A stretch of DNA of 63,333 bases, filler included, from Reclinomonas americana ATCC 50394 (Eukaryota), in the NCBI GenBank assembly GCA_048213135.1. It is 21 parts of 21 records of this genome, joined end to end, with 100 filler letters (N's around TTAATTAATTAA, not from the genome) between each part and the next. Parts side by side here need not be neighbours in the genome. Positions count along the whole stretch, not along the records: positions 11,579 to 16,369 come from AFZH01018538.1; positions 16,470 to 18,070 come from AFZH01018539.1; 19 more parts are not named here. One strand, given 5' to 3'. The translations under genes and the position numbers were made by a program. Positions 13,407 to 63,023 of this stretch are shown piece by piece. The notes under the pieces were generated by a model that worked only from the letters and a program-made list of their open reading frames with translations, ran no database searches and had not been told where the DNA came from. How positions within the stretch are numbered: position 1 is the first letter of the stretch; every line of letters starts with the position of its first letter.

Positions 13407-13762
13407 GCTTCTGATTGCGTTGTCGTCTGGCACAGACTCTCTTGCTTGTTCCCTGGCGAATGCTGTTCCGGTCGCTGTACCGCGGTCTGCACACTGGCCT
13501 CAACGACGATATCGAATACGCGGCATGCCTTGCACCGGCCGCGGAATGCCAAGGCTGACACGCGTACGGTTGGCCTTGGCCCCTGAAAGCGAAGATGACT
13601 GTTTTTTTGTTTTGTTGGCATGCCAAAGTCGACGTCGGTTTGAAATGTTGTCCGGTCTTGCCGGATTTCGCGTCATCTGACGATTTCCCGTCATCCCACT
13701 GCTCTTGGTGTTTGTGCACGCCAGTTCACCTCTGACTCTCACAGTCAACGTGGAGAGGAATT

Positions 13763-13806
<44 letters not shown>

Positions 13807-13897
13807 GCTGTGCGTGCACTCCCAAAAGCACACACACACAAACATTCACACACACGCACACACACACCACCCAATTCTGCTGAGACGGGGCGAGCCC

Positions 13898-14463
13898 ATG
13901 GAGAACATCAAGTGTTGCGTCTCTCTCTTTCTCAGCAGCGAGGTGTGTACATGTCAGAGTGTTGCATGTATGAGAGGCGGGTGTTTTTCAATGGCAACAC
14001 CAGTGCTTCTCGCTCAGTCTCCCATTGTTCTGTGAGTCTCACCCACTCGCTCACTCTGTGCACGCACGCAGGCGTGGTCGTAGGAAACCCTACCGTTGGA
14101 AAGGTGAGACGAGTGAGTCGATAAGCCGTGCACACCGAGTGAGATCTAGCAGGGCATCTTGATCAATCTAGAATTCATCCGATCGCGGGGGTCACGTGCT
14201 TGGTCGGTGACTCACAGTTTATTCGCAGACGGCAATGGTGCTGTCTTTCATGAACAAAGAATTCTGGGGGGACTCGGTACCAACAATCTTTGAGTTGCGA
14301 AAACATGCACACACCCACGCGCCAACACACACACACACTACACATGTTCATGTTTAAGTGTATCTTACTTTGCCCTACGCAGCACTTTTGTCGCAAATCT
14401 GAGGGTTGGAGACGCGGAGATACACCTCGAACTGGTCGACACGGCCGGTAATTTGGTTGAAGC

Positions 14464-14544
<81 letters not shown>

Positions 14545-16275
14545 ATGTGCGTGTAGGGCGCATACCATTCGTAACTTGCAATCGGTGCAGGTGTGGAAGA
14601 CTTTGATCGTCTGCGCCCTCTGTCGTACCACAAAGCAGACGTCTTTATCATCTGCTTCTCTCTCGTGAAACCCACGCCGTTTGAACAAGTGAAAGACAAG
14701 GTGAGGTTTGTATAACAACATTCGCAGCGTTCACTGCGAAGACGTACAACCTCTGTTGTTGTTTCTGCAGTGGAGTGCTGAGCTTAGGGACCATGCATAT
14801 GCACCGAAAGCTCCTATCCTGCTTGTGGGCACCCAGCTCGACCTGACTGCGGATCCAAAAATTGTCGAGGAGCTAAGGAAGAGTAGAATGGCGCCGATTT
14901 CAACGAAGCAGGTATACGTATCGGCTGGAGTTTGTTGCATTCTACTTTTTGCTGTGCCCTTGCCTGACCTTGAGCATTGTTTGGGGTTTTTTTTGCGTAT
15001 TCAGGGTATCCAAATGCTGAAGGAGATTCACGCCAGTGCCTACTGTGAGTGCTCAGCGAAAACACAACAAGGATTAGAAGAGGTGTTCGAAACCGCAGTC
15101 CGGGTGAGTCGCGCGTTCACCAAAGATGTATTTGTGCTGAATGCTGCTGACAATCCTGGAAGTTGGCCAAAGGCTTGCCTGTTCCATCGAAGCCGCCCCC
15201 CCGCCGAAATGTTTGGCGAGAACCTCCATCTCGTCCACCTCCTCCAGCAAGTCTGTGATCGCTCATCGGTTCACCGATTTCTGTTCCAGTTATTCTGACT
15301 GTCTTGCATTAGTTGTAGCCCCTCCCGTCGCGGCTGCAGCTGTTGCCGCTCTGGTGAACGCCTCCGCTGCTGCCGCTCAGGTGAGCGCCTCCGCTGCTTG
15401 TCCTTAGCCTTCAGCTGCCGATATTAGTGTTGCTGTGTTTACGCGTCGCTTGCGCAGGCTGCGCGCGGTTCTGGTTCCTCTTCTGGGTCATCTCGCCACG
15501 AGGAGGCTCTCGTCGCACAACAGCAAGCAGTGGAGCAGCAAGAGCGGCAGATCGCTGCTGCAGAGTTGCAACATCTATCCGAGCTCATGCGTCGAGAGCA
15601 TGAGCACGCTGTGGAGCAAGAACGGCAGGCAAATGTGGAGCTGCGGCAACGCGTCACCGAGGGCCAGCAGCTTATCGCCCAGCTACAGCAAGCCAACACC
15701 CAGTTGCAGGAAGTCAACACCCAGTTGCAAGCTCAGCTGCATGCGGCACTGCAGGACAAGGACGAACTTGCAGCAGAGCTTCAACAAAGCAATCAACTTT
15801 GCACCCAGCTGCGAGAGGAGCTTCTCCTTGCTCAAGGTCAGTAGCATCTGTGCTTCCTCCCCTTTCCATTTCTAACTTGTACTTCACTGCAGTTGACACG
15901 TCGGTGCAGCGGTTCGAGTGGCCGGAAATTATTCAAGCCACTGACTCTTTCTCACCGAGCATCGTGGTCGGTGAAGGCGGGCAAGGCTCTGTCTACATGT
16001 GTTACCTGCGCGAAATCTACGTTGCCATCAAAGTGCTGGACTCCGACGCACCGTGGACGAAGGAGTCGTTCGAGAGCGAGGTTTTGCATTGTTGCCCTCT
16101 CTGTTCTTTGGTTTTCGTTTGTTCCTTCCATTCATCATTATTACCCGTTACAGGTGGCCACCCTTGGGCGCCTGCGCCACCGACGCGTTGTCCCTCTCGT
16201 CGGCTACGCAGTGGGCGTTGGCCAGGAACGCTGCCTCGTGTACAAGGCCCTGCAGTGCGTGCTCAAATCTCTCTC

Positions 16276-16369
<94 letters not shown>

Positions 16370-16477
16370 NNNNNNNNNNNNNNNNNNNNNNNNNNNNNNN
16401 NNNNNNNNNNNNNTTAATTAATTAANNNNNNNNNNNNNNNNNNNNNNNNNNNNNNNNNNNNNNNNNNNNTACGTTCG

Positions 16478-16518
<41 letters not shown>

Positions 16519-17016
16519 TCTTCTTCTTCTTCTTCTTCTTTTCTTCTCCCTCTCTCTCTCTCTCACACACTTGCGTTTCTCTGTGTGTCTTCATTATTTT
16601 TCACAACTGCCCTCACTCTCTCTGTCTTACGTCTTCTCACAATGCTCTTGCCACAGACAACATCTGCCGCCGGTACACCTGATTACATGGACCCACTGGC
16701 CATCCGCGCGCGGCGTCCTCTCCCAGTGCACGACGTCTACAGTATGGGTGTGGTGCTGGTGCAGCTGGTCACCGGCAAGTCCGTTGCATCGGTGGGCGAG
16801 TGGTCCTTGGCGTGGGACGTGTCGCCTGCGTCACTTGGCGTCATGGAACTCGTGGATCGCAGCGTTGAGTGGACGCCGCGCATCGCCGAACCCATGTTTG
16901 AGCTCGGTATGCGATGCATGAGTCTGCGGCGCGACAGGCCGACCGCCCAAGAGGTACTCGAAGGAATGCGCTCGGTGCGCGAAGTGTGCGAACAGTTTAC
17001 GTTGCTTCTCGAGTAA
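13898..17016 (+). CDS. Rho/Rac-like GTPase - Pro/Ala linker - coiled coil - IRAK/Pelle/RLK-type kinase fusion (middle kinase exons in gap)
   Basis: Phase-consistent exons: [23 protein letters not shown]...VPTIFD|TFVANL...[18 protein letters not shown]...|...[10 protein letters not shown]|...[34 protein letters not shown]...|Q/E-rich coil|[20 protein letters not shown]...[10 protein letters not shown]...VAIK...|GTPDYMDP...[15 protein letters not shown]...RPTAQEV. Confidence 0.85.
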
Positions 17017-42180: not shown

Positions 42181-44420
42181 TCACGCAAACGACCCGGTAT
42201 GCACAAACTTCTCCAACAGCTCGTCCTTGGCGACGAAACGCTGTCGCAGCCACCCCGCCACACGCTCCTCGTCCTTGTCCGCTTCGGGGACCTCGGCAAT
42301 CGGAATGCGCTTCATGTGCAGGTGACATTCGTAGTCGCGCCCGCCGCACGCAATCTGCCACAAGTCGGGCACCACCGACGGGTAGCCAATCGTGCAGTCG
42401 TAGATGGCGTCGATGCGATCACCGTAGCCCTGCAACGTGGCCAAAAAGCCGCGGTGGCGCGGGTACACCACGTGTTTCAACTCCGGCAGCGACGCCGACT
42501 CCGCAAACTTGTTCGAGGCCTCCACCGAGCGCTTCGAGTACCGCGTGCCCTCCACGAACGAGTAGAGCCACACCGGGAGGCGCAGACTGCGCATTAAACA
42601 AAGGGAGAGGAGGGAGGTGAGGGGCGATATTGGACAGTTCAGTTGCTGAGTGCGTAACTTGCGCAAGTGGTCAAACGACGACTTCAGGCGCTTCTGGTCC
42701 TTGACCCAGTCGCGCTTGAGGAAGATGAAGCCAATGAGCCACGTGCCGAGGCCGATGCCAGGGACGTACTTGAGCATCTGGGGGAGGGTGGAGGCGGTGA
42801 GTGGGGAGGGAGTTGCGAGGAATACGAAAAGGAGGGAGAAGGGTCGGGCGCGCGCAACATTCTTCATGAAGAACTTGGAGTAGGAGAGGGCGCCGTACTC
42901 TTGCGTCAACTCAAAGATGATCATCCAGTCGGTGTAGGAGCGGTGGTTGCTGATGATCAGGGCGGCTGCAGGACGGGGGAAGATTAGGAGGAGGAGGAGG
43001 AGGAGGAAGGGGGAAGGGGACGGGGAGAGGGAAGGGGAAGGAGGAAGGGGAAGAGAGAAGGGGAAGAAAGAAGGCGAGGAGAGAAGGGGAAGACAAAGGG
43101 GGAAGAGGGAAAGGGAAGGGGATTGGGGAAGGGGATTGGGGAAGGGGGAAGGGGAACAGAGAAGGGAAAGAGGGAAGGGAAGAGAGAAGGGGAAGAGGGA
43201 AGGGGAAGAGGGACAAGGAAGAGGGAGGGGGAAGAGGGAAGGGGATTGGGGAAGAGGAAGGGGGAAGAGGAAGGGGAAGGAAGAAGGGGATTTGGGGAAG
43301 AGGGAAGGGAGGAGAACAGAAAGGGGAAAACGGGATATGAAGGTTGATGATGAGGCTGAAGATGGACAAAGGAAAGAAGAAAGGTGTAAGAAAGAGAGGA
43401 CGGATGCGAGCAAGAGACAACAAACACGAAAAGAAAGATCGACACAAGCAAACGCAACTCTCAATCTCTCCATTGGCCTTTCGCTTCGGCTTGTCGCCCG
43501 TCACCGTGACCTTGACACGACCGAGCCATCGCGCGTACGTGAGCGCCATCCACCAAATGATCGCCGCCATGTAACAGCTGAATCGGTGCACTGTGTGTCG
43601 AAGATGAGCGTGTGCACGACTTGCGCGAATGAGCGAGGCAGCAGGAGACCAACCTTGTCGCGGGAAACACCAGTAGAACATGAGACTGAGCAGTTGCAAA
43701 AAGTTTCCTGTGGGGAAAAAGGGGAAGAAGAGGTGGTCAGCAAAAGGGAACAGTGAGGGAGAGGGGATGATAGGGAAAGGCGCGAGGGGAATACCACAAG
43801 AGAAGTGTGGGAGAGAGAGATGAAGCGTGAAGTGCAAGAACAAAAGGCGAGAGCGACAGACTGAGGAATGAAGAAAGAGAGGAACGGGAGAGACACGCAG
43901 AAAGGGAGGAGTAAGGAGGGGAGCAAGGGAGAAGATTGACAATGTGAAAGAGAGGCAGAAAAGGAAAGAGAAGAGAGACAGAGGCGCTGCGCGTGAGAGA
44001 CAGAGACCAGAACAAGAGACGGAAGAGAAGAAAGAGTAAAAAATGAGGGACGCGTGTGAGAAGCAAACGACTGAGAGAGTGAGAGAGAGTGAGAGAACAG
44101 AGAGCAGGGAAATGAAAAGCAAGTGAATGATGGGAGGCATGCGAGAAGAATGACAGAGCACGAAAAGGATGAAAGAGGGAGGGAGGGAGAGAGAGAGTCA
44201 AAGTTGGGAGGAAACGACAACAATAAGGGAAGAGAAACAGAGAAAGAAATTGAAGGAAGAGCGACAACAGCGAGAAGCAAACGAGCGTGAAAGACAGAGA
44301 GAGTGTGTGTGAGAGAGTGTGTGTGCGTGTACGCGTGTGAGGAGTGAGTGTGAGAGTGCCAAAGTCGAGAGGAATCTCCGCCAAGTCCGCCTCTGGCTGA
44401 TCGCATATTCCCCACACGAT
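42181..44420 (-). CDS. 1-acylglycerol-3-phosphate / lysocardiolipin acyltransferase (AGPAT3/4-LCLAT1-like), 5' end uncertain
   Basis: SNHRSYTDW (NHxxxxD), FIFLKRDW, FVEGTR, VYPRHRGF, DAIYDCTIGY, WLRQRFVAKDELLE. Confidence 0.9.
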
Positions 44421-46087: not shown

Positions 46088-50895
<4,808 letters not shown>

Positions 50896-51315: not shown

Positions 51316-53286
51316 TCAGCTTCTTCCCTCTCGCGGCGGAGCCACATACGTGTGGAACCCGTATCCCTCCCCCGCATCCACACCCTCCACTCGCACGCGA
51401 CACACCGGACACTCGCCGCCCTTGCTCGCCAGCCGCTCCGCGCACTCCCGACACAGAACCTGGTGCATGCACGGACGCAGTCGCGTCTCGCGCAGTCCGT
51501 CGCACACCATGCACGCCCGTCGGCACGACAGCACCGTCAGGTCGCTCAACTCGCTCGCCAGCTGCTGCGCTGTTGGACGGCGTGCTGGGCGACCGTCCAG
51601 GCACCTGCAGATTGATCAGTCAGCGTGTCTCCTCGCAACTCTCTCTTGGAAACACACAAGGTACCTCAGTGCCAATCGCACAATCCTCTCACACACTGGC
51701 GCCGGCCACGGTCGACCGACGCCTGCATCCGCCAGCTCCACAGCGGCTTTGAGTAGCTCTTCGCCATCGACGCCATCCTCTATCTCCTCCAGTGCCTCCA
51801 CTCGCCGATGCACCTCTTCAATCGGCAGACCACTGAACACTTGCAGGAGGACGAGACCGAGCGAGAACACATCCGAACTCAGTCGCAGCTGGCCGTGCAT
51901 GGCCTTGGGGTCGGCGTACTTTGGGTCGCCAGCAAAATGCACAGACAAGTGCGTCTGTGGCACGACGAAGGAAAAGGAGAGAGAAGAGATGAGGGAAGAC
52001 GAAGGGAGACTGTGACATGCAATGAGTGGTGAGACACTCACCCCCTCGGTGCGGAACCAGTGTGCCACTCCCAAGTCCGAGATGTAGGCCATTCCACTGT
52101 GGTTGAACAGAATGTTGGCTGGCTTCAGGTCGCGATGGATCACTGAGAGAGAGAGGGAGAGAGAAAGTGAGTGGAAGAAAATGAGCAGAGGACGGAGAAC
52201 AGACACACGTACCATTCTGCGAATGTCGAAAAGCGCACAGAAAGGCACGAGTTAGTTAACAAGGAGATATATGAAGCAAACGCACACAGACAACACGCAT
52301 GACATCTCTCACTCACATGCCTGCATCATCAACGACGTGAGTCCGAAAACATGGAGAACAAAGCAACAGACAACCAGGCATGTGACACGCAACTTATGCA
52401 GCGAAGCAACAGCCTCGGCACATCGCAGCATGCACGTCATGCGTGCCTCAATCGACATGGCCGGCAATCCGCGCTCCGCCCACTGCAGCAGTCTGTGCTC
52501 CAGGTTGTGCTTGCTGTAAATCGTAAAAAGATTGAGGGCACAATGACGTCTTCTCCTTGAGGAACGGCGAAGAGGCGTGGTGGTGGTGATCGATCATGAC
52601 AGACGGAAAGGCGGGAAACTGCATCTCTCTCTCTCTCTCACACTCCCAGCCGGACTTTCTCATCCTGACTTGCTCCGCTCTCAACAATCGCGAAGTGCCA
52701 CCTGAAGTGCCACCTCTGCCTGTCCACTGTCCCCTTCCCCTCACACTCACCTCATCGCCTCCAGCACCACACATCGCTTGCCGTCGTCCGACTCCGCAAA
52801 CCCAATCAACGGCACCACACCGGCCACACTCACCGCCTTGAGCTTCTCCAACTGCGATGCAGGCAGAAAGAGAGTGAGACGCACACATTTTCTCCTCCTC
52901 TCATCCTTTCCCCATCCACCATCCGCACCTCATTGGAGAACGACTCGATGCCCCACGGCAGCGCACAGTCAAACACCTTGATTGCCACACTCTGCCCGGC
53001 CCACTGCCCACAAAACACCTTGCCCTGTCCGCCGTCACCGCCGCCCAGTCGCTCCGCAAAGTTATTGCTCATCGACACCACTTGTTCCCACGAGAATGCC
53101 ATCAACGGTGCTGCAATAATAGACAAGCAGAGTGAGTCTCCTCTCACCATCGATCATCCCCTATCCCTCTTGCCTCTGCCTCACGCACCTCGGTGGGTGA
53201 GATCCCGCTGTACGGCGGCCAAATCAGCCTCGAGTCGCAAGGCTCGGTCATGTTCGCGCTGCCGCTGTTCGTCCACGCGATCCAGT
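51316..53286 (-). CDS. Coiled coil - Pelle/RLK-type kinase - C3HC4 RING, copy 1 (5' end in gap)
   Basis: FSWEQVVSMSNNF...GGQGKVF...VAIK, HRDLKPANIL, SDLG, YADP, SDVFSLGLVLLQ, RRPTAQQL, then CMVC...PCMHQVLCRECA...CPVCR. Confidence 0.85.
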
Positions 53287-53695
53287 NNNNNNNNNNNNNN
53301 NNNNNNNNNNNNNNNNNNNNNNNNNNNNNNTTAATTAATTAANNNNNNNNNNNNNNNNNNNNNNNNNNNNNNNNNNNNNNNNNNNNGAGCTGCGGCGATC
53401 CTCTCTCTATTGAGACGCGTTGTGTGCGGGACGTCGGCAAAATTGACTTGGACACATCATCGCAAGCGCCCTTCTGACCTCGTAGTCGAGCAACAGCGGA
53501 GTGCATGCTGTAAGGATCACCGATTCGACGAAATTCGCAGCGCAACAGAGGCGCACAAGAAGGTCGAATATTGAGAGCAATAATTGTCAATCGACGTCGC
53601 CTGCGGATCATGCGTGGTCTGCTGGCGTCTGCCCCACACTCTCTTCCGCGTCTACTCCGCATCGTACAATACAATAAAATACAACAAGTCATTCT

Positions 53696-55242
53696 TCACC
53701 GCCGCGGCGCCGGGAGACCCACATACGTGTGGAATCCATATCCCTCCCCCGCATCCACACCCTCCACTCGCACGCGACACACCGGACACTCGCCGCCCTT
53801 GCTCGCCAACCGATCCGCGCACTCCCGACACAACACTTGATGCATGCATGGACGCAGTCGCGTCTCGCGCAGTCCGTCGCACACCATGCACGCCCGTCGG
53901 CACGACAACACCGTCAGGTCACTCAGCTCGCTCGCCAGCTGTTGCGCCGTCGGACGGCGTGCTGGACGACCATCCAGGCATCTGCAGATTGGTCAGTCAG
54001 CGTGCCTCCTCGCGGCTCTCTTGGAAACACACAAGGTACCTCAGTGCCAATCGCACAATCCTCTCACACACAGGAGCCGGCCACGGTCGACCGACACCAC
54101 CATCCGCCAGATCCACCGCGGCGTCGAGCAGTGCTTCGCCATCGACGCCATCAATGTCGTCCATCTCCTCCAGTGCCTCCACTCGCCGATGCACCTCTTC
54201 AATCGGCAGACCGCTGAACACTTGCAGGAGGACGAGACCGAGCGAGAACACATCCGAACTCAGTCGCAGCTGGCCATGCATGGCCTTGGGGTCGGCGTAC
54301 TTTGGGTCGCCAGCAAAGTGAACAGACAAGTGCGTCTGTGGCACGAAAAAGGAGAGGGAACGGAGGATTGAGGAAAGGGGAAGGGAATGACAGGGCAGGA
54401 AAGTGCCACTCACCCCCTCGGTGCGGAACCAGTGCGCCACTCCCAGGTCCGAGATGTATGCCATTCCACTGTGGTTGAACAGAATGTTGGCAGGCTTCAG
54501 GTCGCGATGGATAACTGAGGAGTGAGAGAAAGCGAGTGGAAGAAAATGGGCAAAGGACGGAGAACAGACACACGTACCATTCTGCGAATGTCGAAAAGCG
54601 CACAGAAAGGCACGAGTTAGTCAACAAGGAGAAATATGAAGCAAACGCATACCACACGCATGATCTCTCTCACTCACATGCCTGCATCATCAGCAACGTG
54701 AGTCCAAAGACATGGAGAACAAAGCAACAGACAACGAGGCATGTGACACGCAACTTGTGCAGCGAAGCAACGGCCTCGGCACATCGCAGCATGCACGTCA
54801 TGCGTGCCTCAATCGACATGGCCGGCAGTCCGCGCTCCGCCCACTGCAGCAGTCGATGCTCCAAGTTGTGTTCACTGCGAATCATGAGAGAATGAGCAAA
54901 CACGAATAGATGATCAAAAGAAAGACCAAGTGGTGGTAATCGAGAATGAGAGAGAGAGAGAGAGAGAGGCAGAGGAAGTCACATCCAGAATAAACGAGCT
55001 CCTCTCTCTCTCCCTCTGTCTTGCCTCAATCAATCTCTCAGTGCCACGCATTGAAATCTCTCTATTTCATTCTTTCATTCTTTCTCTTTCTCTCTCCCTC
55101 CTCTCTCATTCAGTCTCTCAACTCTTTCTTTTTCTCTCCCTTCCTCTATCTCTCTCCTTTTCATTCTCTCTGTTTCTCTCTCTATGCCTCACACATCCAC
55201 CAGTTCACTGCAAACTCTTTCGTTTGGTCTTTTATCTCGCCG

Positions 55243-55286
<44 letters not shown>

Positions 55287-56424
55287 TCTCTCTCTCTCAC
55301 ACACACACACTCACACACATACACACACACACTGTGACTCCCGCTCAATCCTCCACTCCCTTAACTCATTCGCTTATCCTCTACACTCACTCCAATCCTT
55401 GAAGTCAACGCTACCTCTCCGAACATTGCACATCAAAACATCACATGCAAGCTCTCCCTCTCTCTCTCTCTCTCACCAAAATCCTTCTCTTGTGAATCAC
55501 ACTCACCTCATTGCCTCCAGCACTACACATCGCTTGCCGTCGTCCGACTCCGCAAATCCAATCAGCGGCACAACACCAGCCACACTCACCGCCTTGAGCT
55601 TCTCCAACTGCGATGCAAGCAGACAGAGAGTTAGAAGAAAACAACCTCCTTCTCTTATCCTTCCCCCAATCAACCACCCTCACCTCATTGGAGAACGACT
55701 CGATGCACCACGGCAGCGCACTGACAAACACCTTGATGGCCACACTCTGTCCGGCCCACTGCCCGCAGAACACCTTGCCCTGTCCACCGTCGCCACCGAG
55801 TCGGTCCGCAAAGTTGCTGCTCATCGCCACCACTTGCTCCCACGAGAATGCTGTCAACGGCGCTGCATTCATCATCATCAAACAAAGTGAGCATCCTTCC
55901 TCCTTCCCCTCTTGCTGCCACACATACCTCGGTGGGTGAGATCACGCTGCACGACGGCCAAATCAGCCTCGAGTCGCTGTGGTCGGTCATGCTCCCGCTG
56001 CCGCTGCTCGTCCACACGATCCAGCGCCTCCTGCAGTGCGGTACGCGCGGCTTCTTGTTGCTGGAGCGAGGCGGCATGCTCAGCGATGGTCGCTTCCTGC
56101 TGCTGCGCACGCTGCTGCCACTCTCTCATCCTCGCTCGCTGCTCGTCCAGCTGTCGCTGCAGTTCCTGAATCTGTTGTTGTACCCGCTGCAAGGCTCCCT
56201 CCCTATCACGTTGCGCTGCCTCAACCTCCAATCGCAGCTGAGCAGCGGTCTGTTCGTGGTGCTGCACCTGAGCTTGCCATTCGCTTGCCCGCTGTCGCTG
56301 CTCCTCGAGTTCTTGCTGCAGCGCATCGGCCGCGGGCTGGGGCAGAGCTTGTCCATTGCCAGCCTGCTCGAGTGGAGTGCGGGAGGAGGCGTCGATGGGA
56401 GATGGAGACGCCCCAGACGCCTGC
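53696..56424 (-). CDS. Coiled coil - Pelle/RLK-type kinase - C3HC4 RING, copy 2 (start codon not identified)
   Basis: Q/E-rich coil exon 55929-56424, kinase exons near-identical to copy 1, intact HRDLKPAN and RING. Confidence 0.82.
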
Positions 56425-56489
56425 GGCGAGGCAAGACATATTAGCGACTGCGTCACATGAAACAACACTGTGAGATCAGCTCACTCCCC

Positions 56490-56630
56490 AGTTTCAGCTG
56501 CGCGGCGCGGTCGGACGGCGTGCTGGTCGACCATCCAGGCATCTGCAGGCTGGTCGCGTGTATCAGATCTAGACACAATCTCAGCGCAAGGCGTACAATC
56601 CTATCACACACAGGAGCCGGCCACGATGAG
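56490..56630 (-). pseudogene. Relic fragment of the kinase C-lobe
   Basis: WPAPVCDRIVRLALR...CLDGRPARRPTA followed by a frameshift and stop. Confidence 0.6.
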
Positions 56631-56778
56631 GGAGCGCAGCATGCGACAACATGAACAATTCTTACCACTTTTCTGCGTGACTGCATTCATTCCAACTCAC
56701 TACTTCGCATCAACTATACAAACAAACAAACAACCCACAAACAAGCGGAAATCGTACCCATTCCCCACGTCAACATCC

Positions 56779-57730
56779 TGACGCCAACACCGCAAGATCA
56801 CTCAGCTCGCTCGCCAGCTGCTGTGCTGTTGGACGGCGTGCTGGGCGGCCATCAAGGCATCTGCAGATTGGTCAGTCAGCGTGTCTCCTTGCAACTCTCT
56901 TGCAAACACACAAACCTCAGTGCCAATCGCACTGTCCGCTCACACACAGGAGCCGGCCACGGTCGACCGACATCTCTATCCGCCAAATCCACAGCGGCTT
57001 TGAGCAAAGCATCGCCGCCCACTTCTTCCATCTGCTCCAGCGCTTCCACTCGCCAGTGCACCTCCTCGATCGGCAGACCGCTGAGCATTTGCAGGAGGAC
57101 GAGACCAAGAGAGAACACATCCGAACTCGGTCGCAGCTGGCCGTGCATGGCCTTGGGGTCGGCGTACTTGGGGTCGCCAGCAAAATGCACAGACAAGTGC
57201 GTCTGTGACACGAGGAAGGGAAGGAGAGGATTGAGGAAAGGAGAAGGGAGAGACAGCGAAGGAGAGTGTCACTCACCCCCTCGGTGCGGAACCAGTGTGC
57301 CACTCCCAGGTCCGCGATATAGGCCATTCCACTGTGGTTGAACAGAATGCTGCCTGGCTTCAGGTCGCAATGGATCACTGAGAGAGAAAGTGAGTGGAAG
57401 ACAATGGGCAGAGGACGGAGAACAGACACACGTACCATTCTGCGCATGTCGAAAAGCGCACAGAAAGGCACGAGTGAGTCAATAAAGAGAAGAATGAAGC
57501 AAACGCACACAGTCAACACGCATGACATCTCTCACTCACATGCCTGCATCATCAACGACGTGAGTCCGAAAACATGGAGAGCGAAGCAACAGGCATGTGA
57601 CACGCAACTTGTGCAGCGAAGCAACAGTCTCGGCACATCGCAGCATGCACGTCATGCGTGCCTCAATCGACATTGCCGGCAGTCCACGCTCCGCCCACTG
57701 CAGCAGTCGGTGCTCCAAGTTGTGCTCACT
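56779..57730 (-). pseudogene. Kinase copy 3: altered catalytic loop and RING deleted (pseudogene or pseudokinase); 5' end in gap
   Basis: HCDLKPGS replaces HRDLKPAN; stop after SDLAVLASGC; out-of-frame remnant DVDVGNGYDF matches the post-RING tail GVDAGEGYGF. Confidence 0.65.
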
Positions 57731-59959
57731 GCGAATCACGAGAGAATGAGTGAACACGAATAGATGCCATCTCCAAGAAAAGACACATGGCGTGGTGGCT
57801 ATTGATCGAGACAGACGGAAAGACAGGAAAACTGCATCTACAACAGACGAGCTGGCAGCTNNNNNNNNNNNNNNNNNNNNNNNNNNNNNNNNNNNNNNNN
57901 NNNNTTAATTAATTAANNNNNNNNNNNNNNNNNNNNNNNNNNNNNNNNNNNNNNNNNNNNAGAGAGAGAGAGAGAGAGAGAGAGAGGTGATGAGAGACAG
58001 CGAAGGGGAAACATAGTCTGGCAATAGTGAGAGGGGGAGGGAGAGAGCGCGCGCTCCCGACGGAGACTCCCTCCTGTCTCTTTATCCGCTCACCGCGTTT
58101 TTCACGCAGGTTACACGATGGTCATCAAAGCCTCGACGCCATCGCCTTCCACATTTTTCATATACTTTTTCGTTAAGTCATCGCTCGCCCCCGTATGCTG
58201 GAATAAATGGCTCTCACCTCCCTCGTGCGCAGACCCCTCGGGAGGATGCGAACTACCAAAGTGTGTCGGTGCCCCCATGAGCGGCGAATCAGTTGCCACT
58301 CACTCACTTTCCTTGTCTCTCTTCGCAGAAGTCATGCAGGGCGCGACGCAGGGTGCTGAAATATCGCTAAATTATGTCGTTGGGTGTCCTTTTGTGCTCT
58401 CCGGTTGCAGAAACACAGCGTGAATGTTCACATCCTGCGTGTGCTGCGGCAGATGCAATCCAACAGCGTCGCGCAAGCCATTTCCAATGCCGGGGTTCCT
58501 GGTCGTCAGGTGCATCTTTCGTTCTTCTTTCATTATCCTCGTTGTGTTCTCGCGACTGGCTCGCTCAACTGGTATGTTTAGTTCTTTGAGATCCTGGTCA
58601 CGGAGATCCAGCAGTACAGATACATGAATTCTAGCCAGGACTACAAGTACCACGTAATCGAACAGACAGAGGTTTGCTGATGGGCGCGGGGGCCTGCTTT
58701 CGACATGATTGCAGCTCATCTTTTTCTTGCAGATTTCATCGTTTTCTCCGGCGTTCTTCGCCAACACGCTGCCGAGTGGATACCAGGCGTCTATTGGTTT
58801 GTGTTGTGTTGTAGAATGATGAGACTGCGAGCTGTGCTGACTGCTGTCGTGCAGGCGTGCGACCTGCACTGTCGACATTTAAGGTGTGGAATGGGAGAAG
58901 GGGGATAGGAGGGGAAGGAGCGAAGAAAGAGGGAAGGGGAAGAGAGCAGTATGTACCGGAAAATGGATCGTCTGTGCGATTCTGTGTGCTGCTGAGTCCG
59001 AAGTGGCTGTACGATACTTTTCTCGTGTGCTGTTGCTTGGCTGTGTCATGCTGTGGTGCTCTGTTGCTCTCGTGTGGTTGTCGGTCTGGTGCTGCGGTCT
59101 TGCTATTCTGTGTTGCTCTTTCCTTCGCTGCTTTGTTATTGGGGCATGCTTCTGTTATTTTTTGTGCTCCTCTCCTGCGTTGCTTCGCTTCCTGCGATGT
59201 TGCCGCTTTGGTGGTCGTGTGAGTGTGAGTTGGCTGCCCCGTGCTACTTCCGTTTGCTGAGTTGTTCTCTGTTTGAGCGTGCGAATATATTCGTGTGCTG
59301 CGGTGTCTAACGTCGTGCGCAGGAGACATACCAGTTCTCCGTTACCGACTTCCTGGGCTCCGAAGTCGCCATCATCGGTGGCTGCTTCTCATTGTTGCGT
59401 GACCGGCGACCGTTCCCCTGCCTGCCTGCGTGATTGCACTCACACACACTGCGGTACAGATGGCGCGGCGTCTACTGGATCCTGTCGTTGATATTACGCA
59501 GGTGGTTCTCCGCGTCCAAGCAGCAGTCGCCGGATGCGGTCAATGGCAGTGGCATGCTGCTGGAGCCATTAACGAGGGGAAAGAATTGAACACTAATGAT
59601 AACAACAGAGCAAGGAGAAGGGAGGTGGTCGTATGGATGGGAGATTCAATCAATCAAGTATGCCGAGCACACTGGAGCGATTGTTTTCACCCGAGTCGGA
59701 TCGTGCGCACAGACTTCCCGGGCGTCGTTGAAGGAGATGGACGACCGACATCGAGAGCGGCCACCTGCGCCGAGTGGTGGACAGATGCTGCGTAGAGATC
59801 CTGCGGGCGGACTATGCGATGTTCGCTTTCCGCTGTGCTGGTGGCAACCAGGCTCAAAACCAAGAGCCAAGCAAATAATCTCCCACCCGCAGCAACTGCG
59901 CCGCAGCCTCAGGGCAACTGGAACCATCGCGTCGCTATTGCAGCACCCAGCGTCTACGT

Positions 59960-60306: not shown

Positions 60307-63023
<2,717 letters not shown>

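Follow-up and report, generated by a model that had tools for sequence, protein, structure and literature searches.

A candidate gene joining an atypical Rho GTPase domain to a coiled coil and an IRAK/receptor-like kinase in Reclinomonas americana

We analysed a 63,333-nucleotide stretch of DNA from Reclinomonas americana ATCC 50394 (assembly GCA_048213135.1), here called the window, and in particular its plus-strand locus at positions 13898-17016, where the exons of a Rho-type GTP-binding (G) domain are followed at short distance by a coiled-coil exon and by the exons of a serine/threonine kinase. A first-pass annotation of this DNA had proposed that the locus encodes a Rho/Rac GTPase fused to a Pelle/IRAK-type kinase. 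The evidence presented below suggests that this is probably correct, and that the locus is one fused gene with a Rho head, a linker, a coiled coil and a kinase of the type found in IRAK and in plant receptor-like kinases (RLK). The window is a scaffold of about 21 contigs (1.5-4.7 kb each) with an identical 100-nt linker at every join, and the contig 11579-16369, which is gap-free, holds the G domain, the coiled coil and the kinase N-lobe together; it is bounded by the linkers 11479-11578 and 16370-16469, so the earlier statement that the path from G domain to N-lobe crosses no gap holds.

The G domain was assembled from seven exons, separated by GT-AG introns of 70-158 nt, into a stop-free translation of 176 residues. 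Exon 1 (13898-13913) provides the start codon and the N-terminus MENIKC and ends in phase 1 at a GTTGCG donor, which recurs after exon 3; exon 2 (14072-14103) encodes the P-loop GNPTVGK(T), in which the GxxxxGK[ST] pattern is kept and Pro stands at the position of Ras/Rac Gly12; and exon 3 (14229-14293) contains switch I with its conserved Thr (VPTIFD). The beta2-beta3 region and the DTAG motif are encoded by exon 4 (14383-14447), switch II, with Val at the Gln61 position, and the sequence DRLRPLSY by exon 5 (14591-14700), the G4 motif TQLD and the Rho insert by exon 6 (14771-14911), and the G5 motif ECSAK and the last helix, ending ETAVR, by exon 7 (15005-15103), which is followed by a phase-0 GTGAGT donor. 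The motifs G1-G5 (GNPTVGKT, switch I Thr, DTAG, TQLD, ECSAK) are thus all present. Two exon-bearing frames scored above the cut-off for Pfam Ras, namely those of exon 5 (1.6e-6, 28.2 bits against a cut-off of 21.6) and exon 6 (1e-6). Residues 4-176 aligned with the canonical 199-residue Rho protein P0151 at 45% identity, and the second half of the domain aligned with human Rac1 residues 96-175 (96-139 in exon 6 and 141-175 in exon 7) with the Rho insert undeleted, Rac1 being the best match (E = 9.7e-13) among 162 sequences of the PDB at E<=0.01. The insert is defined in a passage of PMC7600811 as lying between G4 and G5, and TQLD fits the G4 form (N/T)(K/Q)xD given there. These motifs and alignments bear out the earlier description of a complete Rho-family domain with DRLRPLSY, a Rho insert and ECSAKTQ.

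Fast, GTPase-activating protein (GAP)-stimulated GTP hydrolysis by Ras and Rho proteins requires Gly12 and Gln61 (Ras/Rac numbering). Both are replaced here, with Pro and Val where P0151 carries Gly and Gln, suggesting that the Rho head would hydrolyse GTP slowly. Furthermore, no CAAX-type ending (C-x-x-x-stop) occurs in any of the three frames over 15095-16260, and exon 7 ends at a splice donor and not at a stop codon, in agreement with the first-pass annotation on both points; P0151, in contrast, ends in the polybasic CAAX tail KKKKCQLL. Because the CAAX ending is missing from every frame, a conventional stand-alone Rho protein is not encoded at this locus, whether or not the G domain is fused to the kinase. 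The domain is probably an atypical, anchor-less and GTP-locked Rho domain.

The coiled-coil exon (15458-15836) begins in phase 0 with a Ser/Gly-rich segment, continues with heptads rich in Gln, Glu, Ala and Leu, and ends in phase 1. Its first in-frame ATG is at 15587, downstream of which the heptad periodicity was significant (p = 0.001); the 43 codons that precede this ATG have, in frame 0, a composition like that of the coiled coil downstream (0.06, vs -0.8 and -0.99 in the other frames). The first kinase exon (15893-16080) encodes a juxta-kinase motif typical of plant receptor kinases and IRAK, together with the Gly loop (GEGGQG) and the Lys of VAIK; the second (16154-16254) extends from the helix C Glu to the hinge and ends at a CA/GTGCGT donor, so that the catalytic Lys and the helix C Glu are both present. 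The HRD/DFG region falls in the assembly gap at 16370-16469, which has (CT)n on both flanks, and the C-lobe lies beyond this linker on the next contig, in an exon (16657-17016) that comprises subdomains VIII-XI, has the Glu of APE replaced (DPL) and ends at a TAA stop (17014-17016). In the PDB, the first N-lobe exon matched a LysM receptor kinase (1.2e-5) and IRAK1 (3.9e-5), and all 24 sequences at E<=1 were IRAK1/4 or plant receptor-type kinases, including the cytoplasmic BIK1. The C-lobe scored just below the cut-off of Pfam Pkinase (3.3e-7, 30.4 bits against 31.7) and matched IRAK4 (9.4e-5) and BRI1 (2.5e-4); IRAK4 or plant receptor kinases made up 33 of 33 PDB sequences at E<=0.01. No piece of the gene matched a Death-family domain of Pfam, the N-terminus being occupied by the G domain instead. 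The nearest PDB matches therefore support assignment of the kinase to the RLK/Pelle/IRAK type, and since every significant one was to IRAK1/4 or a plant receptor-type kinase, the Pelle/IRAK label given earlier to the kinase was retained.

Splicing the second N-lobe exon (exon 12 of the model) straight to the C-lobe exon would produce a frameshift (phase 2 vs phase 0), which, together with the intact C-lobe, implies that the missing HRD/DFG exons exist. The ratio of nonsynonymous to synonymous substitution (dN/dS), computed against the paralogue described next, was 0.12-0.17 for the two lobes (0.17 for the C-lobe), with similar dS (0.8-1.2). These values show that the kinase is under purifying selection and is, or recently was, functional, and their similarity on the two sides of the gap indicates that both lobes behave as one gene.

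The paralogue was found when we compared the Rho-kinase model with the window by tblastn, which matched 61353-63020 at 75-77% identity in the N-lobe and 70% in the C-lobe. It is a plus-strand gene (60449-63023) on a gap-free contig, whose 670-residue model is in frame throughout and contains ankyrin repeats with a Pro-rich tail (60449-61063; Pfam Ank_2, 2.8e-20), a coiled coil (61236-61752) and a complete kinase (61825-63023) with HRDIKPSN and DFG. The HRD/DFG exons of this paralogue (62292-62409 and 62471-62578) have no assembled counterpart in the Rho-kinase locus. The two genes share intron positions and phases, and the donor CA/GTGCGT of the second N-lobe exon is the same in both. At the ankyrin junction the best donor (61064, scoring 7.3) and the acceptor that clearly outscores all others there (61235, 11.8) share phase 0 and thus join the ankyrin part to the coiled coil in frame; left unspliced, the ankyrin frame would stop 169 nt ahead of the first ATG of the kinase part.

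Other members of the family form a minus-strand cluster (51316-57904) of three or more related coiled-coil-kinase genes arranged in tandem, and in two of them the end of the kinase reads on without interruption into a C-terminal RING (zf-C3HC4_3, about 1e-10). Related kinase copies in the region number at least five in all. The tandem minus-strand kinases carry DLG instead of DFG, and partial duplicated 3' fragments of a kinase occur at 56453-56686. In a minus-strand copy, 97 codons, with three out-of-frame ATGs, precede the first in-frame Met, and 67 of them showed heptad periodicity (p = 0.003); this open, heptad-bearing stretch ahead of the Met shows the coiled-coil exon to be internal and coding there. 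In all three paralogues compared, the coiled-coil exon follows a GCAG acceptor, has Ala as its first codon and runs on without a stop. We also considered, and dropped, the idea that both paralogues have a conserved Met where the coiled coil begins, as the alignment does not bring the Mets together.

At the Rho-kinase locus, exon 7 of the G domain and the coiled-coil exon lie 354 nt apart (15104-15457). The first-pass annotation had crossed this junction by in-phase splicing through a Pro-rich exon (15163-15250) and an Ala-rich exon (15313-15380), and the path it implies (15163-15250, 15313-15380, 15458-15836, then 15893-16080 and 16154-16254) is indeed GT-AG bounded, in frame and stop-free. 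Under a splice-site matrix built from 13 confident introns (training donors 0.2-10.1, acceptors 5.8-12.2), the donors 15104, 15251 and 15381 scored 6.5, 6.3 and 6.7, while the acceptors of that path, 15162 and 15312, scored 0.3 and 2.6, under the training range. Better acceptors in the same frames, 15192 (4.6) and 15318 (4.5), would start the two candidate linker exons at 15193 and 15319, and the resulting chain (15104 to 15192, 15251 to 15318, 15381 to 15457) has introns of typical length (89, 68 and 77 nt) and, of the four best-scoring donors and the four best-scoring acceptors that the junction offers downstream of exon 7, uses three each. Direct splicing from donor 15104 to acceptor 15457 is in frame as well. 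The path proposed earlier is therefore valid, although its particular exons are neither unique nor well supported by their acceptors.

The reading that we favour, a single gene, is drawn from the completeness of the G domain and its ending at a phase-0 donor, from the short distance to the coiled-coil exon and the in-frame direct splice across it, from the use of the coiled-coil exon as an internal coding exon in paralogues and the same layout of the ankyrin paralogue, from the purifying selection on the kinase, from the chain of typical-length introns across the junction, and from the accessory-domain fusions that occur in this family. The last of these are certain, and relatives from elsewhere extend them. 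An exhaustive HMMER search of a 1.84-billion-protein library with the C-lobe as query returned 354 proteins at E<=0.001, the nearest of which were plant kinase-U-box proteins, Closterium kinases, an Artemia IRAK4-like protein and two proteins of Stenamoeba stenopodia; the best identities, among the best 150 of the 354, were 32-37% for the C-lobe and 36% for the whole kinase domain of the ankyrin paralogue. The two Stenamoeba proteins, both from an EukProt transcriptome, are built as WD40-coiled coil-kinase-RING (P0154, 840 residues) and coiled coil-kinase-RING (P0072), so that a core of coiled coil and RLK/Pelle-like kinase with variable heads and RING tails is real in transcripts elsewhere. 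The Stenamoeba architecture parallels that of the plant Usp-kinase-U-box proteins and of the tandem genes of the window.

The searches gave no second protein with a Rho head on such a kinase. Among the best 150 of the 354 C-lobe matches, none was matched by the spliced G domain at E<=10, and none by the ankyrin head of the paralogue. Word-indexed searches against longer proteins gave no match among 491 candidates for the G-domain frame 14705-15298 (E<=0.001) or among 16 candidates for the N-lobe exon, and against proteins of similar length the G-domain frame gave two weak matches among 119 candidates. A metagenome scan with the C-lobe alignment yielded 80 loci, all of them generic kinases whose identity over the domain did not exceed about 30%, and none with a Rho-like sequence. 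Nor did we find a description of a fusion between Rho and an RLK/Pelle/IRAK kinase in the full-text literature, a scope that leaves out most subscription journals. The first-pass annotation had not recognised the architecture as a described family, and with no Rho-kinase protein in that literature or among the best 150 of the 354 library kinases, we concur.

The most serious competitor, which we regard as possible but rather unlikely, is that the locus consists of two closely spaced genes in the same orientation, one for a stand-alone, CAAX-less, atypical Rho-like GTPase and, after it, one for a coiled-coil kinase. The GTPase would then end at a stop at 15256-15258 (with a Pro-rich tail), at 15296-15298 (by reading through intron 7) or two codons past acceptor 15289, and the kinase would start at ATG 15587 or from a small first exon with ATG 15141 or 15209; the two may be expressed as an operon or from an internal promoter. 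Stops and ATGs are suitably placed for this arrangement, intergenic distances elsewhere in the window are short (about 600-700 nt), and fused models of neighbouring genes are a frequent artefact.

Several further observations weigh against one fused gene. The single transcript is inferred, an operon with trans-splicing may exist at the locus, and no orthologue or other protein with Rho and kinase domains was found in the libraries searched. The in-phase path is not more than chance on its own, since 114 of the 673 GT-AG paths across 15104-15457 preserve an open, continuous frame (the direct splice, 16 of 104 with one exon and 97 of 568 with two). Moreover, the coiled-coil acceptor 15457 scored 3.9, below all 13 training acceptors and on a par with acceptor 15289 (4.1), and the Pro-rich frame, if donor 15251 is not used, would give a GTPase of 197-207 residues, a normal length for a Rho protein. 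The first three residues obtained by reading past ETAVR (15104-15112) are identical to those of P0151, and the true end of exon 7 may lie a few codons downstream, where a GTATTT donor at 15128 is also phase 0. Codon usage, trained on five neighbouring genes, did not favour the frames of the Pro-rich and Ala-rich exons. Over the 129 nt between 15458 and 15587 there is no ATG in any frame and the first one is in frame, as would be expected of a 5' untranslated region (UTR), and in the ankyrin paralogue too the first ATG past the coiled-coil acceptor is in frame; heptads upstream of Met 15587 were not significant (p = 0.40, 31 residues). Scans for signals of gene ends and trans-splicing favoured neither reading: the five true gene ends examined share no poly(A)-type hexamer downstream, and Rfam and tRNA scans of the window gave no match and hence no spliced-leader clue.

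Against two genes stands the space that they would have, as at two independent loci a mere 170-330 nt would need to accommodate the 3' end of the upstream gene together with a promoter and a 5' UTR, and a kinase start at ATG 15141 or 15209 would overlap the end of the GTPase gene. The upstream module is in frame with the kinase part at both loci, Rho and ankyrin, the coiled-coil exon is internal coding sequence in a third paralogue, and in relatives known from transcripts the same core of coiled coil and kinase bears an N-terminal head.

It is also conceivable, but in our judgement very unlikely, that the locus is a decaying chimera that encodes no functional fusion, a kinase duplicate having landed in the last intron of a Rho gene and left a truncated Rho relic or a kinase without its catalytic core. 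Such an origin would fit the abundance of kinase copies nearby, partial fragments among them, the loss of both catalytic residues and the CAAX from the G domain, and the invisibility of HRD and DFG in the assembly, where the (CT)n on both flanks means that the gap could in principle be mere repeat. The seven G-domain exons, however, keep their frames, splice sites and nucleotide-binding motifs despite only 45% identity to the nearest Rho, the low dN/dS on both sides of the gap speaks against decay of the kinase, and the frameshift that a direct join to the C-lobe would cause implies that its missing exons exist. A chimeric contig, with a Rho gene wrongly joined to a kinase gene within 11579-16369, might be suspected in so fragmented an assembly, which breaks at microsatellites and has a compound one at about 14460-14545, but it is exceedingly improbable because exons 4 and 5, which flank that microsatellite within the G domain, belong together as one domain, no repeat occurs from exon 7 to the coiled-coil exon, and the ankyrin paralogue has the same layout on another contig.

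The architecture is a variation on the multidomain tyrosine kinase-like (TKL) kinases and the atypical multidomain Rho proteins, both of which are known. Like the ROCO proteins (LRRK2 and Dictyostelium Roco/GbpC, with Roc, COR and a TKL kinase), the predicted protein would combine a G domain of the Ras superfamily with a TKL-group kinase in one polypeptide, with a dimerising element between or around them and a G domain presumed to regulate the kinase. It differs in that the G domain is of the Rho type, with a Rho insert, and stands at the extreme N-terminus, that the kinase is of the IRAK/RLK and not the LRRK type, and that about 180 residues of low-complexity sequence and coiled coil stand in place of COR; searches of the G-domain pieces, the coiled-coil exon and the 15141-15407 frame gave no Pfam match to COR or Roc at E<=0.1 or E<=0.01. 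The earlier exclusion of ROCO is thereby upheld.

The closest kinase domains are those of IRAK/Pelle and the plant RLKs (in the PDB, IRAK1/4, BRI1, CERK1, LysM and SYMRK), from which the protein differs in having a Rho head with neither a death domain nor a receptor ectodomain, in the replaced Glu of APE and in an identity to library proteins of only 30-36% over the kinase domain; plant kinase-U-box proteins have a U-box where the tandem paralogues have a C-terminal RING. The Stenamoeba proteins P0154 and P0072 likewise place a coiled coil directly before an RLK/Pelle-like kinase and have an N-terminal head and/or a zf-C3HC4_3 RING, although their head is a WD40 propeller and not a Rho domain and kinase identity is about 30%. 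Among Rho proteins, Rnd and RhoH are GTPase-deficient, with substitutions at catalytic positions. RhoBTB, according to a passage of PMC7600811, has a Rho domain with an insert, no CAAX and a long C-terminal extension with other domains. The G domain described here resembles these proteins in its Rho insert, its lack of a CAAX, its C-terminal extension and its catalytic substitutions, but its extension consists of a coiled coil and a kinase, no piece of the gene matched a BTB domain of Pfam, and there is no sequence relationship beyond the Rho domain. In plants, a passage of PMC7582978 states that the kinase activity of the receptor-like cytoplasmic kinases (RLCK) of class VI_A is regulated by ROP GTPases, a possible analogue in which a Rho-type GTPase acts with an RLK/Pelle-type cytoplasmic kinase. 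The plant partners are separate proteins, whereas here they would be joined; the G domain is nearer to Rac1 than to any ROP among solved structures, and, as it is without the catalytic Gln, cycling would be unlikely.

Elsewhere in the window we recognised KAP3 (kinesin-associated protein; 425-1729, minus strand, 3.5e-67), a GRIM-19-like piece (9054-9995, plus strand) and, on the minus strand, Hsp20 (12499-13218), an acyltransferase (42181-43500) and EDRF1 (49200-50690, 1e-47). The genes of the window are rich in introns, and KAP3 suggests a eukaryote with flagella or cilia. The GC content at third codon positions (GC3) was 0.62-0.91 in the five training neighbours (0.82-0.91 in four of them and 0.62 in the ankyrin head of the paralogue) and 0.38-0.76 overall in the Rho-kinase gene (0.59 in the G domain and 0.71-0.76 in the kinase). 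The linkers (for example 5206-5305, 11479-11578 and 16370-16469) each consist of 44 N, a 12-nt six-frame stop and 44 N, and contig adjacency across them is scaffold information, with no sequence behind the order. Several contig breaks sit in (CT)n microsatellites. Long compound microsatellites of the (CT)n(CG)n(GT)n and (CT)n types occur at 14460-14545, 13750-13870 and 16260-16369, in introns and upstream regions, and give long spurious open frames on both strands, such as that at 14175-14783 (minus strand), which is without a Pfam match.

If the locus is one fused gene, it would have about 15 exons and encode a protein of about 640-650 residues with, from the N-terminus, the atypical Rho G domain, a flexible linker, about 110 residues of coiled coil and the serine/threonine kinase. 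It would belong to a locally expanded family in which a constant core of coiled coil and kinase is combined with swapped accessory modules: the Rho head here, ankyrin repeats in the paralogue, RING tails in the tandem copies and WD40 in the amoebozoan relative. We suggest that the coiled coil would dimerise the kinase and so allow its activation in trans, and that the Rho head, probably permanently bound to GTP, would act as a recruitment or regulatory head, bringing the kinase to partners that bind Rho or else contacting the attached kinase itself, in the way that GTP-bound ROP GTPases switch on the RLCK VI_A kinases of plants. We infer both the dimerisation and the recruitment role. Because the heads are swapped among paralogues, recruitment is favoured over a finely tuned GTP switch, and a general recruitment head fits the swapped heads at least as well as the integrated decoy that the first-pass annotation had put forward beside a built-in switch; by analogy, the plant ROP-RLCK VI_A precedent keeps a model of intramolecular activation open. 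A bolder extension, which we hold to be unlikely, is that the kinase has in its Rho head an integral partner locked in the GTP-bound state, that the direct coupling of Rho to RLK/Pelle kinases, so far known from the plant ROP-RLCK VI_A pairs, is older and wider than plants, and that the family is a sensor repertoire resembling innate immunity, with the Rho head as a possible bait for factors that bind Rho proteins or modify them.

Novel combinations of kinase domains are frequent in protists, which limits the weight of any single one. If confirmed at the transcript level, the gene would tie a Rho-proper GTPase covalently to a kinase of the IRAK/plant-receptor type, and it would offer a simple system for studying how a Rho-type switch controls an RLK/Pelle kinase, a question that is open for plant ROP-RLCK. 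A Rho-RLCK fusion would, if true, be a 'Rosetta stone' for the ROP-RLCK VI_A pairing, and would let one ask what use is made of a GTPase-dead, anchor-less Rho domain. The family as a whole, with Rho, ankyrin and RING modules on one core, would be a compact case of exon shuffling in signalling proteins.

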